DNA of 62,326 bases, the filler included. It is 9 parts of 9 records of this genome, joined end to end, with 100 filler letters (N's around TTAATTAATTAA, not from the genome) between each part and the next. Parts side by side here need not be neighbours in the genome. Positions count along the whole stretch, not along the records: positions 58,859 to 62,326 come from SRR7504441_78; 8 more parts are not named here. One strand, written 5' to 3'. Each line of letters begins with the position of its first letter. Position 1 is the first letter of the stretch. The notes below the pieces were generated by a model. That model was not told the origin of the DNA. It ran no database searches and saw nothing but the letters and a program-made list of their open reading frames with translations. Both the position numbers and the translations under genes were made by a program. Below, one piece after another: positions 13,301 through 62,326 of the stretch.

Positions 13301-16300
13301 CGTGTGTGCATCCTGGCATTACAATTGGGGAGCAGTACAAGCTGGCTGGTAGGCAAGAAAGCACCCCAGAATGGGCTGTTGTGCGTGCCTGGGAGACCAC
13401 CTGCACTGACTGTGAGCATTTTCAGCAAATTAATATAACGAAGAAGCCCAAACAGAGCCTTCTGGCAGTAGGTGTGGTGAGCGTATCCAAGTACGCGGAC
13501 AAGCTTGCCGGCCAGGGGCTGCCATATGTGGACGGCAGTCTAGCTGAGCTGGGTTCTTCGCAGATGTGGTGGTGGTCGAGCACAGGCGAGATGCACATGG
13601 ACGGTACCCAACAAGCCTCGGGGATCACATTTGAGGAGAACGATGTTATCTCTGTTCTGATAGACCAGATTGACGAGCTAGAGCCAGCTATGCCTTCGAA
13701 TGAATCTAATGCCGTCTCAATCGACTCAAGTACAACCCCAGACCCGCTGCCCATGATGGACATCCCTGACCTCTCCAGCCTGTCTGCCTCGGGAAATGTG
13801 AGTGCGGCCAGTCCACTCGGCCCGAGTGCAGAGCTCTTCGAGTTCCTGGCAGCACGGGTGGGTGACACATCGGATGGATTATCTTTGAGTACCAGGAACA
13901 GATTCAACCGAACCAGCAATGTTGGCACTCAAACTGCACCACCGCCCGTGCCACTTCGGCGGTCGCTGCAAGTGCGAAGGCCACCTCCACTACAGCTGCA
14001 AGGGACACATCCTCGTGGCAGGATAGCCCTGTTCAAGAATGGCGCATTGATTTGCACTGTGGATAACGCCAGCTTGCCTGAAGAGGGCGCTTGTGTGTGT
14101 GTCGCATTCGGTCACGAGGCACAAGTGACGCTCATACCTGAGGCGTCTCCACCGCCAGCTGCAGCAGCCGTGCTTCGGGAGAGGGACGCACCACCGCAGC
14201 CCGTAGAACCTGGTGACACTTGTGCGCAATGTTCATTTGCAACGACTGGCACACACTATGCGTTGCAGACGTACTACCGGTGCCGAACATGTGGATTGAC
14301 TGGAGGAGAGGGCGTGTGCGAAGCCTGCGCGCATGGCTGCCACAGGGGACATGACCTCAGCCCGCCAATCTATGGCAACTTCTTCTGCGACTGTGGAGCG
14401 GGCTCTGGACCTCAAGCATGCAGCCTGATGCGAGCCCGGCCACACGGCTGTGGCAACTCGGAGGGATCTGACGTCGCTCAGGTGAGCCTGCTTGCCCCCA
14501 CTGCTCAGACTGAGCTGTGTGTGCTGCAGCTGGTTAGGATCAATCACGTCCCAACCAGCACTCGACCACGGCACCACCGACGCACCAACATCCCCTCGAC
14601 CAACAAAGACAAGACGTCAGTGCAAGACGGGGAGCCAGAGCCGGAGCGCTTGGATGCACAGGAGCCTGAGGGGGTATGGGGGTTTAAGATTCGGGTTGCG
14701 CCGCTGGGGCTGTGTAGGCGAGGCCACTTGGCAGTGGCCAGCAGCAGTAGGTTCCGGCAGGAGTTTGAGGAGCTGCTTAGTGTGATGCAGAGCTGGACGC
14801 TGCAGGAGGACGAGGGCCTGGTGGCGCTGGTGAACAAGCTTGTGCTCGAGCGCAACATCAACCTACTGAGCATGCCAATGTGCACACTTGCCACGGTGCC
14901 GCACGAGCAGCTGGTGGCCTCCGGGTTGCAGGATCGCGGCCCGCAGGAGATCGGGCTGAGGTTCCTCTTGCTCAAGAAGATGAACACAATGGTAGAGACT
15001 CACGTGCTCCCTGTGGTCGACTTTAGCCAGCTACGCCAGCGGCCTGTGGTTCTTGCTCCAAGGGCCGACCGGCAATGCTCTGCACTGCTCCCGCTGAGGC
15101 AGCAGGTGACCACATTGCATGGGATGCTCTTCTGGCAGATCAAGCGCAAGCTGTGGATCCCGTGCATAGAGCGGACCCACTTCACTAGCGAGCGGCAGGA
15201 GGTTGTGATAGACAGGAAGAAAGCATTCGATTTAGTAACTCAGGGCAAAACAGACAACGAGGGCAGGGCCACTGTGTTTGGCCAGTGCTTCAGGCAGCTC
15301 TCGGGGCTGGAGCCTTCCAAGCTGCGAGGCAAGTCCAAGGCCTTCTCCGTAATTTTCCGGGGAGAGTCTGGCGAAGATGCTGGAGGGGTTTATCGGGAAG
15401 CGCTGGAGCAAATGTGCCGCGAGCTGCAGTCTAGCGCACTCCCGCTGTTTGTGCGCTGTCCAAATGGAGTGCAGGACGTCGGGACCAATCGCGACAAGTG
15501 GCTGCCGTCGCCGGCCGCTTGCTCGGCAACGCACATATCGATGTTTGAGTTTGTGGGCCAGCTGATTGGGATCGCACTCCGGACTAAGAACTTGCTCTCA
15601 TTGGACCTCCCGCCCTTGGTGTGGAAGGTACTCATAGCTAAGCTGGCGCGCGGCTAACCTGGGGGCAGGCGCTAGTGGGCTCACCCGTCGGACTGCCAGA
15701 GCTTCGGGAGGTGGACCTGTGCGTGGCACAGGCGATAGACATGTTGCATAACCTCGAATCACATGGGGTGTCGCCCGAGGTGTTCACTGACTACTTCAAC
15801 GACGTGTTCGTGACCCGCGACTCTAGTGGCGCCACGGTGGAGTTGTGCGAGGGTGGGTCAAACCGGCCGGTAACGTACGACAACCATCTCGAGTTTGCGA
15901 GCGCAATGGAGCGGTTTAGGCTGCAAGAGGGCAAGGTGCAGCTGACTGCTATCAAGCGTGGGATCGGCACGATCGTGCCCGCCGGGATGCTGGCCCTCTT
16001 CACGCACAAGGAGCTAGAGGCGCACATCGCGGGCTGCCCACAGCTTGACATTGGGCTGCTCCGCTCGTGCACAACCTACAGCAGCGGCGCCACCGGCCAA
16101 GAACCGCACATTGAGGCGAGCCGTGCCCGCAAGCCAGTGTGTGAGCTGTTGGCAGGCGCTGTGGCAGTCGCTGGAAAGCTTCACAGAGGAGCAGCGGTGC
16201 TCCTTCCTAAGGTTTGTGTGGGGCCGGTCGCGGCTGCCACTCTCGGCGACCGAGTTTGAGCGCAACTTCGAAGTCAAGACGATGGTGCGAGACCGGCCTG

Positions 16301-33042: not shown

Positions 33043-34624
33043 TCATGCATATGGTGCAGATGGCCTGGCCACTGATACGAATTCGCCTCCATCCAAATGG
33101 TTGGTGTAGGCTACTGACCATGCATTATCACTTATCAGCAATCCAGTAACCTGAAACATCACACTCAGCTCACTCGAGACCAAGCAAGCATTGTGCCTTG
33201 GAGAACGTGAAATGCGTGTGCGAGTCCATGCGTGTATCCAGCATCTTAGCTCCTGCACCGGATTCATTGGCCTGCCTAAGGCAATGCACAGGACCTCGAC
33301 AGTCTGAGAAGTCGAAACGTGCACCGGTCAGATCAGCACCCTCGAAATTGCTTTCAGACTGCAGCAAACAGACGGGACGCGGTCAGAGCAGACAGGCTTG
33401 TGGGCCGAGTGGCTACCAGATCAGCGTTTGTGAAGTTTGCACCACTGAGCACGCAGCCTTGGACCATCGACTTGGGCAGCTTGAGCCACGAACAGTCGAC
33501 TGGTCCCAGGATAGCGCCTGAGCCGAGCCTGAGCCAGGGGCACCACCCAAGCCGCGCACCAATAAGCCACCCCTCGGCAAAAGCTTTCTCGATATCCAGT
33601 ACGCAGCTATCCGGCCGATTAGACCATTCAATAAGGCAGCTCACCCAGTCAGATCCGCTCCATTCAGCCGAGCACCCGACAGGTCGGCCCCAGCCAGGAT
33701 GCAGCCACGCAGGTCGGCGTTCTCCAGATCGCACCCCTGCAGCTGCGCGTCGGACAAGTCCAAGCCTCGCCAATCCGCCTGCCACGCGCTCGGCCCGACC
33801 TCCAGCACGGCTCTCACCCCATGGATCTGGGCCCCTCGGAGCCAGCCAGCCCTGGCCCAACTCTCCACCTCAAAGACGGCCCCGGCCAGGTTGCAGTCCA
33901 CCACGCACGCGCCCTGGCCCGAGTGAGCGCTGGCCGGGCCGCGGTGCGACCTGCAGGCAAGCTCCCTCGAGGTTCGAGTTTGCCAAGTTGGCCCCTCGCA
34001 GATTGGCCTGGCTCAAGTCGACCCCGACCAGCTTCGAACCGGCCAGCTCCTGCCCAGCCGCTCCCCCACGTCCCGGGCCCGCGCCGCACCTTGCCGCTCC
34101 AGTCCACAGCCCCGACACTCGCCCCGACCAGCCATCCGTGCGCGCAGCACTCCTCCACGTCGATCTTGGCGTCGCTGCCCGGCAGAATCAGGACCCGGCC
34201 CGGGGGCAGGCCGCACCGCAGGTCGGTGCCCTGGAAGTCTGTCCCGGTCAGGTCGACGCCCCTCAAGTCGGCAGCCTGCAGGTTCCCGTCGTGGAGGTCC
34301 AGACCGCGCAGCGTGGCGCCCCTGCGCCGGGGGCTGAGCGGGGCCGCAGCCATGCCGGGCACCTGAGGTCCTTGTGCGTCCAGAGGACAGGCGCGTGCAC
34401 CCGCTGGGGGAAGGCGTCGGCCACCACCGGCCACTTGGCCCCAGGGCCCGCGCCCCTGTCCCAGGAGGGCGCCGGCTTGGTGGTGTAGAAGAGCGGCGGC
34501 GAGAAGTAGACCTGCTCGCCGGCTGGGCTGGGCTTAGGGAGGCTGGCCGAACCGGCGGAGGAGCGCCACCGTTCCGCAGGTCCTGGACCGGTGCCAGCCG
34601 CACTGTATTGTGGTGACCAGGCAT
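33043..34624 (-). CDS. Pentapeptide-repeat protein, about 9 introns
   Basis: A(D/N)Lxx repeats (ADLRG, ANLRG, ANLAN, ADLSG); last intron GC-AG 33151-33196. Confidence 0.85.
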
Positions 34625-34677
34625 TGCTAGCTGGTTGCTGCAAGCTGCAACGGCAGACTCACATTCTGATCGGGCAC

Positions 34678-36757
34678 ATGAAGGCCTTAGTGTGTGGCCT
34701 TTGCGGCTCCTAGGCTGCGGTTGGGGCAGCGGCTGGGGGCAGGGCTGGCCCAGGCCGAGCAGCGCCAGGCAGCCAGGGCCGCGCTCGCCTAGGCCAGCAC
34801 CGTGGGCCGGTCGGCGGGGAGCACGGGCAGCCTCCTCCCGGGAAGCTCATCCGGATGCAGGCCATGCGTAAAGAGGATTTAGGAGCTGAAATCGAGGCCA
34901 AGAACAGGGAGCTGTCGGCGCTGGCCCAGCAGCTGATGCTAGAGGAGTCGCCGGGCCGGCGCCAGGCGATCGAAGCGCAGGTGGCGGCGCTCGATGCGAC
35001 CATCGGCCAGCTGCAGCAGCTGTACCGGCGCAAGGCCAAGGCCACTCCTGAGTCCCTCCAGGCCGACATCGAGGCCAAGAACAAGCAGTTGTCGACGCTG
35101 GCCCAGCAGATGATGCGGGAGGAGTCGCCGGGCCGCTGGCGGGCGATGCAGCAGACCGCGGCCGAGCTGGATGAGGAAATCGCCGGGCTGCAGCAGCTGT
35201 ACCGCAAGGCGGCCGCGGACCAGCCGGCGGATGGGCCCAAGGCGGAGCTGGAGCGAGAGAACCGGGAGCTTCGGGCGCAGCTGCAGGAGGCGCAGGCTCG
35301 GATCCGCGCGTGGCAGAAGTGTTTTGAGGAGCGCGAGTTGGGGATGGAGCAGCGCGGCCGGGCCGAGGCAGCCAGGGCCGAGAGGGAGGCCGAGCTCGAG
35401 CAGCTGGCCAGTCTGAAAACCAGGCAGGCCGAGCAGCAAGCTGAGCGCGCCGAGGCCGCGACCAGCCGGGCGGCCGAGCTGGACGCGCGGATAGAGACGA
35501 TGGGTGCTCGCCAGCAGGCGCTGGAGCAGAAGCTGGCGCTGGCGGAGGGGCGGGAAGCCGATGCGGCCCGCAGGCTGAGCCAGGCGACCATCGAGCGACC
35601 TGTGGAGCGACCACCTGTGCCTGACCCGAATCAGATGCAGCTGCTGGCAGCCGAGCTGAGTGTTGTGCGGCAGATGAAGCGGCAGTTGGAGGACAAGGCG
35701 CGAGCCGGGCGGGCGCCTGCTGACCGGGCGGCAGGTGGCGACGCTCACCGCGGAGCAGCACAGGAGGGGCGCGGACCCGGGGGTCGCGCTGGCCGAAGCG
35801 GAGGCCAGGCTAGAGGCGGAGCGAGCTGCCAGAGCCAGTGCAGACCGCAGGCTGGCCGAGTGCCAGGGCCAGCTAGAGGCGGCTCGGGCCAAGCTGCGGG
35901 AGGCAGCGCTGGAGGCCGAAGGGTACGGGAACCAGGCGGACACGAGCGAGGAGCAGGCGCTGCTAGCCCCTCAGCTGCAACAGGCGTTTGCTGCTAGGAT
36001 CCAGGCGCTGCAGGCAGAGCTAGCCGAGGAGCGCAGGGCCAGGGCGGAGGCGGTGGCGGCCAACCGAGCGCTGGAGCAGCTGATGGATCCGCTCAAGCTA
36101 GAGCTGGCAGGGTCGGCCCAGGACAAGGCGCTGCTTGCCAATGAGCTGCGGATGACGCGCGGTGCGGCCCAAGTTGGCCGAGCGGCCGAGCTCTGGGGGG
36201 CAGAGGAGCAGGGCGCGCTCAGGGGGCGGGCAGTCGGGTCAGAGCAGCAGCTGGCTGAGCTCGGGAGCGAGAATGGCGAGCTGCGCAAATCGGTCTCGGA
36301 GGCGGCCGAGGTGTTTGGGGCCACAAACAAGGCGCACAGGCTGCAGTTGGTGCACCTGGAGGAGCAAGTGCAGGCGCAGCGGGCCGAGCTGGCGTTGGTC
36401 CGGGGGCAGTTGGAGCAGGCTCGGGCCGAGTACGACAGCAGGAGCAAACTGTGCGGCTTGATGTCGGACTCACTCGAGCAAGCCGAGGTGTCAGCCGGGC
36501 TGGGCTGAGCAGAGCGGGCGGGCCAGGCGCTGATTGAGGCCGAACGGAGCACCAACGAGGATCTCCGGCGGCAGATGCTGCTGCACCGGGCTCAGTTGCA
36601 ATCAGCTGAGCAGGCAGCGGCCACTGAGCAGCTCCGGCAGCTGCTTGTGATGGCCAACTCTAATGAGAGATCGAAGGCCAGCCCGTCCGTGAGGCCCGTG
36701 ATTGAGCAGATATTCGACCGCACTGACAATCGTACGAACTCACGAGTGAAGAATTAA
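34678..36757 (+). CDS. Coiled-coil protein with internal 59-aa duplication
   Basis: IEAKN..LAQQ..EESPGR..QQLYR occurs twice, 177 bp apart (34891, 35068); GC-AG intron 35698-35734; 5' exons tentative. Confidence 0.65.
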
Positions 36758-58758: not shown

Positions 58759-58860
58759 NNNNNNNNNNNNNNNNNNNNNNNNNNNNNNNNNNNNNNNNNN
58801 NNTTAATTAATTAANNNNNNNNNNNNNNNNNNNNNNNNNNNNNNNNNNNNNNNNNNNNCT

Positions 58861-61800
58861 TTAGACACTAGCTTTTGTACAAGTGTACCACGTTGTCAGA
58901 ACTCGCAGTATGCTGAAGCAGTGCAGAATGAGCAAATGTTCCACGAGCGCCAGAACTTCTCCAGGCTCGAGCGCTTTTGGATTACTGAGCTGGAGTCTCT
59001 GACCCAGGGCTCAAAAGCTCACCTGGTTATGGCGCAAAAGCATGCAGCAGCCCTGCTGGCAGAATGTACACAGCTGAAGAGTCAGAGCAAAACCGATAGC
59101 CAGGCGCTGCGGCGCCTCAAAGTTAGGTTGAAGCATAGTCAGACTGAACTCTACCTTCACAAAAAAGCACTTTCCCACTCCATAGCTTCCATGCAAGCGA
59201 GATCGCAACAGCTAATCACAAATCAGGAGCTCAGAGTGGTGCCAAACCCAGGTGAGCAGCCTGAACTAGTAAGCCAGAGGAAGGCTTCTCTACGGAAAAA
59301 GTGGTTCAGGGAAATCCGTTTGAAACAAAAGGTGTACAATGGTTTGAGTACACAGGTGCAGGCATCCACGGGTGAGGCTCAGGCTCGTCGTGAGTCCTTA
59401 GACCACTTGCGTCGCGAAACTAAGGACACAGAAACACAAGAGCTCCGTGCTAAGCAGAGTCTCCAGAAGCAGCAGGATCTGTCACTGCAGATTCAGGACC
59501 TAGAAGTCACCAAAGAGGAAAACTGCAACTCTTTTGCATGGTCGCTGTGGAGTGCCTGTAGCTCACCTTGTGGCGGTGGTGTGCGCTTCCGTCATCGCAA
59601 TCTGGATAGCAAAGATGTGGGATCAGCATGCAAAGAGGACCTAGAGTCGGCACACTGCAACCGAGAGCCTTGCGGTCAGTTTCCTGTGCTAACTCGTAGC
59701 TACATGAGTCCAATGCTTTACTTGCGCTGCGGCAGGTGTTCCTGCATCTGTGTTGGGTTACAAAATCGACAAGGAGCCCACTGATGGGATCCACGTTTCA
59801 TGGCATGCACCGTTTAGCAAGCTACCGATTGAGACATACGAGCTCGAGGCAAGGCCTATCACTAATGCTTCCGTCAAAATATCTGTCACTGTCACAGACA
59901 CAAGCAATACAGCCGGAGCTAACAATGGTGGCCACTTTACCTTCAGAGGGCTTCCGCCTGGTCTCTACTATGCAATTTCAGTTAGAAGCAAGAATGCTGT
60001 TGGGTGGGGGAATTGGAGTCTTCCGGTGTACTTTGGAACCTCTGGTGTGAATCAAAGCAAATTGTACGGGCAGACTACAAAGTTCATTTTTGATGACCAA
60101 CATGAGATGCTGTTAAAGCTCATACAGTGGTACAACTATGTGAGGACTTTGAAGGGAGAAACAAAAAGGCAAGCGTCTCAAAGAGTGGCTGCACTGGCAG
60201 GTCAACTGGAAAATTCAACATCACAGCTTTTCATCCAAAGGTTTCAATCATTGAGTGGTGATTATGATGTTGATACTCTGAAGCGCTCAGTTCAGGATCT
60301 CGCGAGAAAAGCGCAGGTCCTTGCTCAGGACCATGCCAAAGAAGCAACAAACAAGCTGCAGCAAAGGCATCGCTTGCAAACAATTAAGGAACTTCATCAG
60401 CGTGTAGAAGGAGTGAAAATGAGTGCCAGTGTGGCATATAAGTTTGTACATGGGGTTGATCTCCGCAAAGAGTCACAAGGAATGGTGCACATGAGGCAAG
60501 TCTCTGAACCATTGAGCCCCATTGGCCTAATGACAGCCTACCAATCTGCCCAAGACTTTGGACAAAGGTGGCACAATATTGTCCGTTTGTTGCAATTGGA
60601 GGAGAACCGCATTGCTAACATGACTGCAGCATGCTGTTGGTGTGCTCAACCCTCTTCTTCAGTATGTTGACCCAAGCGTGATGAGACATATTACCACGAA
60701 GCCATGCGGTGCACAGTGTCCGGCTTTGCAAATTGTTGAGTTTATCCTGTGCCAATTCACAAGCCACCGCCTTCTTCACTCGGTGCTCAGATCTCAGTCT
60801 CCTTGCATGTGCTTCAGCAGCTTTCCTGGTTTGTTTCCTGCCCAGGTAAAGCTTAACGACTTGATCAGTATGGTGGTCATTCGACACTACCTCTAAACAT
60901 TTCTGATGTGTACTATTTGCTTCCTTCTTCACACTGCTCAGGGATTTGTCTGCCTGCTGTATTCGCAGTAGGTCATCGTTAAAGCCCTGAGCCTCTCTAA
61001 GTAAATACATTTTTTTCTGAATGAAGGATTTTGTTGCCTCGGGATTACGCTTTTTGTCACTCTTCAGCTCAAGTGTTGTCCTGATTGCAGAAGCCAAGGT
61101 ATAGTTCCTATGAAGCAGGATATTTTCCTCCCTTGAAGGCGGACTGTCATCATTGCTTATTCCAGTTGTCCTTTGACAAGAACTCATCCACGCCTGCACC
61201 AATACTAGAAGCATGGAAAAGCTTCCTGAATGAGCGGAGAACTGATCTAAATGATGCTTTAAATTCTACCCATTTGGGCTTCAATCCTTGCCAGATAGCG
61301 AGCCGTAATGAGGTTGACACCATAAGGGAGATGCAGCAGCAGGCTCTGGCGACTTCCAAGACCACATATCCTGGATCAATGCAAGTATACGATCACCTCT
61401 ACCAGAAGGAATTCATCAGATTGCGGTGGCTGCAGATGCTTGCTTCAACAATCTCCTTTCATGCTGAGAAGGTAAAACATCTGAAGGAGCGAAGCTCAAA
61501 ACGATCAGATCTTGAACAACTAGCCAAGAAGCACGCTCTTTATACAAAACTCGTTTCACAGGATGCAAAAGCAGGCATGCACTGGGACCTTGTGGCACGC
61601 AAAGCTTCAAATTCAAACAAGGGATTCCGGAAGCAGCTTGAGCAGACCAAGAAGCTGGTGCAAATGCTTGCTTTCAAACTCAAAAGTGGCAACACTTGCG
61701 AGGGGAGCTTTGCAGAATGCCGAAGAATGCGGAGGCAAAACGTAAGGCAAAGAAGATGGTCATGAATGCAAAGCAGAGAGTAAAGGACACAATTCAAGAT

Positions 61801-62326
61801 GCTATGCTTGCTGGTCAGGCACAATGCGACAGTTGTTGCAACTAGGGCTGCTGATAAAGCATCAGAGGGCTCAGAAAAGGCGTGATCAGACAAAACAGGG
61901 ACACAAGAGGGGGGTAGAGGATGAGGCCGTATCACAGGCCAAGTCTATGGTTATTGAGAAGGAACAAAAAGCGGCAAGTGCGAAGCTGACACAAGAAACT
62001 GCTCGCGGGTGCAAAACGCACCCCCAAAAAGAAGTTACTTTTCTTGACCTTCGGAGAGCAAAAGAGCAAATGGAAGCAAACAAGGAAGTCTACGCCGCCA
62101 TCCGGACCAAGTGCGAAAAGTTACAGATAAGGTTGACTGAGCTAACCCAGGAAATACGTTCGCTCTCCGCATCAACAACCTTGCCCAGCATTACACCCAG
62201 AACTATTATTAATGGATCATAGAAGCGCTGCCTCGTTGCAGGAAAGCAAATTCAAAGCTGCAGTGCAATATTCCACAGGGCGGTGCCAAGCGGCCAGGAG
62301 GAGGTGTGAAATGGCAGACCAGAGCC
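58861..62326 (+). CDS. Large TSP1 + FN3 + coiled-coil protein, truncated at both ends; apparently scrambled (one inversion, one block swap)
   Basis: TSP1 WSLWSACSSPCGGGVRFRHR; FN3 VSWHAP..GLPPGLYYAISVRSKNAVGWGNWS; introns 59675-59735 and 62158-62200. Confidence 0.75.

Follow-up and report, generated by a model that had tools for sequence, protein, structure and literature searches.

A balanced 543-bp inversion within an exon of a TSP1-fn3 gene distinguishes a marine protist contig from its seawater counterparts

The last contig of the window (the whole 62,326-nucleotide stretch of DNA that we analysed) contains, within one exon of a gene with thrombospondin type 1 (TSP1) and fn3 domains, a 543-bp segment of 181 codons (60625-61167, minus strand) that is inverted relative to contigs assembled independently from seawater. 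As a feature that sets this contig apart from the natural population, the inversion is real, exactly delimited, and balanced. It is an ordinary structural variant or, alternatively, a fault of assembly or amplification, and nothing points to a programmed mechanism.

The window consists of nine contigs of 3.1-16.7 kb each, separated by spacers of the form N44-TTAATTAATTAA-N44, and is not one molecule. Its last contig (58859-62326, plus strand) covers part of one eukaryotic gene, with both ends open. On the plus strand, the frame that runs from 59708 stops at a TGA (60668-60670) and is open again from 61085, following another TGA (61082-61084); on the minus strand, a frame is open over 60615-61265, with a TAG stop at 60615-60617. 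An earlier note on this DNA had interpreted this arrangement as an in-gene inversion of 457 bp (60629-61085), bounded by the repeats CTGCA (60624-60628) and TGCAG (61086-61090). Both motifs are indeed present in the sequence, and when the 457 nucleotides are reverse-complemented in silico and translated, a single open frame extends from 59708 to 61765. The reading of the inner stretch as the same gene backwards is likewise borne out by codon usage and purine skew. When codon scoring is trained on the flanks, the inner minus-strand frame scores +42.7 bits and contains no stops, whereas the five remaining frames score -72.1 to -5.8 and contain 4-19 stops; purines make up a share of 0.41 of the inner stretch and of 0.54 and 0.55 of the two flanks.

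Near either end, neither strand meets a stop for tens of codons, and thousands of flips therefore restore the frame; the limits of the inverted piece are hence unreadable from the frames alone. Altogether, 3166 of the 23,520 pairs of cuts tested are frame-restoring, which corresponds to 2354 distinct flips; flanking inverted repeats of 5 bp accompany 7 of these, repeats of 4 bp another 7, and repeats of 3 bp 27 (41 with at least 3 bp). A 5-bp pair, such as CTGCA/TGCAG, is thus what chance gives.

The limits were obtained from independent sequence data. The region 60200-61500 is present in marine and seawater metagenome and metatranscriptome runs (20 rows, 14 studies, best share 0.71). Contigs of four runs were aligned to the last contig, namely, X1 and X2 (both from study P1), X3 (P2), and X4 (P3); X4 is an oligo-dT RNA library, and what kind of library X1-X3 represent is a guess ('RNA?' or 'DNA?'). 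The X1-X4 contigs leave 58859-59786 and 61411-62106 unspanned. The most complete picture comes from X1 record 2 (1152 nt; two other letters and one gap), in which 60076-60624 and 61168-61228 lie in one orientation, and 60625-61167 in the opposite one. The three pieces abut both in this record and in the last contig, with no letter lost or added. In X2, record 4 contains the joint 60624|61167, and record 5 contains the other joint, its loose end being the reverse complement of the bases that follow 61170. X3 record 6 reads 60621|61170, equivalent to the joint of X2 record 4 given the 3 ambiguous letters. Thus the flipped, colinear form was found in all three runs that bridge a joint (X1-X3), which come from two studies, and the joints that define the segment are 60624|61167 and 60625|61168. 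The as-written joints were found in none of the four runs, a count that refers to contigs, which drop rare variants, and to a set in which three runs bridge a joint. The earlier note had named a lack of genomic reads for the as-written orientation as grounds for abandoning the inversion; this count bears on that point in part, as it describes contigs from other samples rather than the reads behind the source assembly.

Relative to the seawater orientation, then, the idea of an inversion within the gene that neither adds nor removes a base stands, and its proposed limits are replaced: the true piece is 60625-61167 rather than 60629-61085. According to the joints in the seawater contigs, its size is 543 bp instead of 457 bp, its right end lies 82 bp farther, and the 27 codons of 61086-61167, which had been assigned to the downstream plus-strand frame, belong to the inverted piece. 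Four contigs (X1 record 2, X2 record 4, X3 record 6, and X4 record 11) run unbroken across 61085/61086, which overturns the previous right limit. The right limit rests on the contigs, given that codon scoring of the 27 codons discriminates weakly (-1.7 versus +2.5 bits). Flipping 60625-61167 also yields an open frame. The contig joints and the chance count together rule out CTGCA/TGCAG as a recombination site: TGCAG lies inside the inverted segment, where there is no joint, and CTGCA overlaps the true left joint by chance.

At the actual joints, the only shared sequence is a 3-bp inverted microhomology, with GAC on the left (60622-60624) and GTC on the right (61168-61170), which accounts for the 3 ambiguous letters at each joint (60621|61170 equals 60624|61167). 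This homology is weak on its own, with exactly 3 bp in 27 of the 2354 frame-restoring flips and at least 3 bp in 41. An end-to-end comparison of the segment revealed no homology beyond these 3 bp, the repeat searches detected no inverted-repeat pair placed at both joints, and there are no inverted repeats of at least 30 nt across all nine contigs. As for splice signals, no GT..AG or AT..AC pair was found at the joints in any of the four equivalent registers.

Several further features of the seawater contigs deserve mention. X3 record 9 (358 nt) is identical to 62181-62221, beyond which it continues for at least 255 letters that are unlike the last contig; the split, at 62221/62222, falls inside the TAG (62220-62222) that ends the last contig's frame. 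As a weak indication, the frame continues without a stop through the first 30 loose letters of this record (10 codons), and the break may represent a second rearrangement joint or a paralogue. The outer ends of X2 records 4 and 5 (at 60409 and 61188) share 11 loose letters, mutually inverted and absent from the nine contigs, which look like what is left of one amplification primer or adaptor in that library. The X1 contig is one base short at 60456 relative to the last contig, and because the last contig's frame is intact at this position, it is the low-depth public X1 contig that is probably in error.

The gene itself can be followed on both sides of the inversion. The first exon part (58861-59674, plus strand) encodes a coiled-coil-like stretch and a TSP1 domain (Pfam TSP_1, PF00090; E 1.2e-10, 41.8 bits versus a gathering cut-off of 21.6; residues 227-271 in the translation of 58861-59784). 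A predicted 61-nt intron (59675-59735, plus strand), with a GT, a CTAAC branch-like motif, and an AG, would connect the TSP1 and fn3 frames; including it keeps the gene model open. The exon part to the left of the inversion (59736-60624, plus strand) encodes an fn3 domain (PF00041; E 2.1e-10, 41.1 bits versus a gathering cut-off of 25 in the translation of 59708-60628), followed by a coiled-coil-like stretch, and is matched by X1 records 1 and 2, X2 record 4, X3 record 6, and X4 record 10. To the right of the inversion, the exon part 61168-61741 (plus strand), again coiled-coil-like, continues in the same frame as the left part, and X1 records 2 and 3 reach 61379. Two frame changes, near 61720 and 61830, occur within about 110 nt at 61700-61850; a 91-nt GT..AG intron (61742-61832, plus strand) would account for both. 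The middle frame of this stretch appears coding-like (+13.8 bits), and thus two 1-nt indels at its ends are possible as well. With the segment flipped and the two predicted introns removed, 1070 codons are open, with no in-frame TAA, TAG, or TGA; the as-written gene model contains 7 internal stops.

The TSP1-fn3 gene is surface-protein-like, with adhesion-type domains, and the host is a marine protist. A Pfam search of the gene outside of the TSP1 and fn3 domains identified no family; judging from its composition, this remainder looks like a coiled coil. Word-indexed searches for protein homologues with 152-aa and 180-aa pieces of the segment returned none at E <= 0.001, a HMMER search of the 180-aa segment against protein representatives gave 0 matches among 1.84 billion, and the 212 pattern matches among JGI metagenome contigs included no relative. 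The ESM Atlas added no label beyond sorting nexin and fn3 and yielded no taxon. Inspection of the last contig with Pfam and by frame revealed the TSP1-fn3 gene only and no recombinase gene. Pieces of both the flank and the segment occur in the oligo-dT RNA library X4, which makes expression of the gene in the sea probable, although carry-over of DNA may also have supplied these pieces.

The remaining contigs provide the context in which the quality of the assembly can be judged. They encode eukaryotic proteins, such as a SPRY/UBA/UBR/HECT ligase and a PX-Vps5 sorting nexin, and contain intact frames of up to 1994 aa. Frame changes in these contigs fit short GT..CTAAC..AG introns. The long intact frames and the intron-fitting frame changes together indicate that the assembly is not generally error-prone. 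For example, the HECT domain in contig 1 is split by three changes of frame, and the Pfam profile continues across the gaps, which span a few tens of bases. Short predicted introns of about 43-61 nt, built of GT, a CTAAC motif, and AG, are seen both in the low-GC last contig (59675-59735) and in the GC-rich contig 1 (about 15627-15668). This shared build implies that the DNA is genomic, makes a single organism plausible as the source of both contigs, and suggests that the frame changes in the assembly are mostly introns, not indel errors. GC content is 0.46-0.50 in the last contig versus 0.52-0.71 in the other eight; among 2-kb bins, it ranges from 0.46 to 0.71, with the last contig being the lowest. 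The last contig may be a low-GC part of the same genome or may have been mis-binned.

We also scanned all nine contigs for other cases in which frames of the same phase are bridged by an antisense frame. This yielded about a hundred rows, mostly from GC-rich contigs with antisense frames that are open by chance. One of these regions, 33280-35995, formally resembles the arrangement in the last contig, with two long plus-strand frames of 402 and 427 aa that share a phase, a 228-nt gap, and an antisense open frame (34013-34847) that bridges it. Here, the DNA has a GC content of about 0.71, antisense frames are open by chance, and the pattern most likely reflects an intron.

How the as-written orientation came about is a separate question from its existence as a difference. 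We put at about an even chance the explanation that it is a real, non-programmed, gene-truncating balanced inversion allele of the sequenced genome. Under this explanation, the colinear arrangement would be the normal one, and a 543-bp stretch of one exon (60625-61167) would have been turned round exactly in place, either by two polymerase strand switches or by two breaks that were rejoined, at the GAC/GTC 3-bp inverted microhomology. This would have been a one-off, non-programmed structural mutation in the sequenced strain or population, and it would have produced a null allele, or one coding for a truncated protein, rather than a switch. The frame stops 14 codons past the left joint, at the plus-strand TGA 60668-60670; hence a protein made from the as-written gene, if real, would be left with TSP1 and fn3 but with none of the coiled-coil tail. 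Both the mechanism and the existence of the as-written molecule in the organism, beyond the source data, are what we infer from these observations.

One argument for such an allele is the form of the rearrangement, that is, an exact reverse complement in place, without gain or loss, as expected of inversion by template switching or through microhomology. The parts of PMC8755829 and PMC5453318 drawn on here report exact in-place inversions in real genomes and trace them to template switching or microhomology-mediated repair. The micro-inversions in these accounts, attributed to template switching or microhomology-mediated break-induced replication, share with the present case the exact reverse complement and the short inverted homology at the ends. 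The human-chimpanzee micro-inversions, as given in the relevant part of PMC8755829, are 17-33 nt long and have perfect or near-perfect flanking repeats, whereas the present inversion is 543 bp long, has 3 bp of homology, and lies in a protist exon. The joints also bear on the assembly step. They contain no repeat on which a k-mer graph assembler could flip, which implies that both new joints were present in the source reads and rules out a graph-assembly flip on a repeat. The absence of the as-written joints from the contigs of all four runs weighs against the allele.

[quoted passage not shown] In a variant of this explanation, another kind of chimeric library molecule would have come to dominate before faithful assembly. 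We regard an artefact of this kind as a serious possibility, if short of an even chance. It is favoured also by the second break relative to X3 at 62221/62222, by the short length of the contig, and by its GC content, which is unlike that of the rest of the bin. Two structural differences, the inversion and the break at 62221/62222, at a base identity above 99% point to a faulty contig more than to a natural allele. Furthermore, chimeras produced by multiple displacement amplification (MDA) are mostly inverted joints of nearby segments with 2-21 nt of complementarity; according to the portion of PMC1855051 considered here, the share of inverted joints that also have an intervening deletion was 85% among 475 chimeras, and more than 90% showed complementarity when the segments were less than 10 kb apart. 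Strand inversion of nearby segments at complementarity of 2-21 nt is thus common to these chimeras and the present case. However, the chimeras in that portion of PMC1855051 consist of a single joint with an intervening deletion, whereas 60625-61167 has two reciprocal joints in perfect balance, with nothing lost; the single inverted joint plus deletion that marks the MDA type is not what is found here. Also against an artefact, there are no fold-backs or long inverted repeats across the nine contigs, the other contigs look clean, and there is no indication that the source DNA was amplified at all.

A very unlikely alternative to both the one-off allele and the artefact is a programmed or recurrent reversible inversion that switches a surface-protein-like gene between full-length and truncated forms, as a eukaryotic counterpart of bacterial intragenic invertons. 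Both orientations do occur when the public data are combined (the last contig versus X1-X3), and the adhesion-type domains of the gene would suit such a switch. In addition, the inversion is exact and one of its orientations has a premature stop, as in one class of the invertons described in the sections of PMC10028968 at hand, in which inversion within a coding sequence results in recoded or prematurely stopped products, so that a full protein alternates with an early stop. However, the invertons in these sections of PMC10028968 rely on invertases and on inverted repeat pairs recognised by the recombinase, with both orientations present within a population. The repeats of such invertons are typically about 10 nt or longer at both ends (11 nt in one validated intragenic case in the same sections of PMC10028968), which is not what we found at the ends of the present segment. 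Here, the homology is 3 bp, there is no recombinase gene in view on the last contig, the host is a eukaryote, and there is one orientation per data set, with single runs (X1-X3) containing only the flipped form, as far as contigs, which drop rare variants, can tell.

A switch of this exon segment of the nuclear TSP1-fn3 gene with almost no repeat, or else a pair of germline and somatic arrangements as in the scrambled genes of ciliates, seems to us highly improbable. In spirotrich ciliates, scrambled germline genes contain inverted segments and pointer repeats. The present case resembles these genes in that a coding segment is inverted in one form of the DNA and colinear in the other, with a short repeat at the joint. 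It differs in that there is no spacer DNA between the segments and that the 1070-codon model is free of all three stop codons. The GC-rich neighbouring contigs and the GT-AG introns of 43-61 nt do not suggest a spirotrich ciliate either.

We find scarcely credible the explanation that the as-written DNA is normal and that the RNA is made colinear, be it by removal of a long intron or by trans-splicing of an antisense exon, as well as its variant with three separate genes on alternating strands, although GTATGT at 60662 and a TTGCAG whose AG lies at 61089-61090 would splice in phase, and the flipped form, given the guessed library kinds of X1-X3, may in principle derive from RNA: the joints 60624|61167 and 60625|61168 fit no GT, AG, or AT-AC pair in the four registers, which speaks against a long intron and trans-splicing; the predicted introns here measure about 43-61 nt with a CTAAC motif, not 429 nt; the RNA contig X4 record 11, which comprises 60961-61111, is unspliced across 61090/61091; and the inner stretch resembles the flanks in codon usage and is in frame with them at the joints. 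The long intron that the earlier note had offered as the outcome that would undo its inversion thus finds no support.

What the inversion means depends on which of these explanations holds. If the as-written form is an artefact, the last contig and perhaps the whole assembly would contain balanced inversions that gene callers would read as three genes. Regardless of origin, strands that are open near the ends of a segment allow thousands of frame-restoring flips, and short flanking repeats picked by eye weigh nothing. A true switch would give the intragenic invertons of bacteria a counterpart in a eukaryotic nucleus. If the as-written form is true as a one-off allele, it would represent no new kind of system; it would be a clean natural in-place inversion of several hundred bases at 3 bp of homology that cost one strain of a widespread marine protist the tail of this surface-protein-like gene, and it would be useful for the study of mutation mechanisms.
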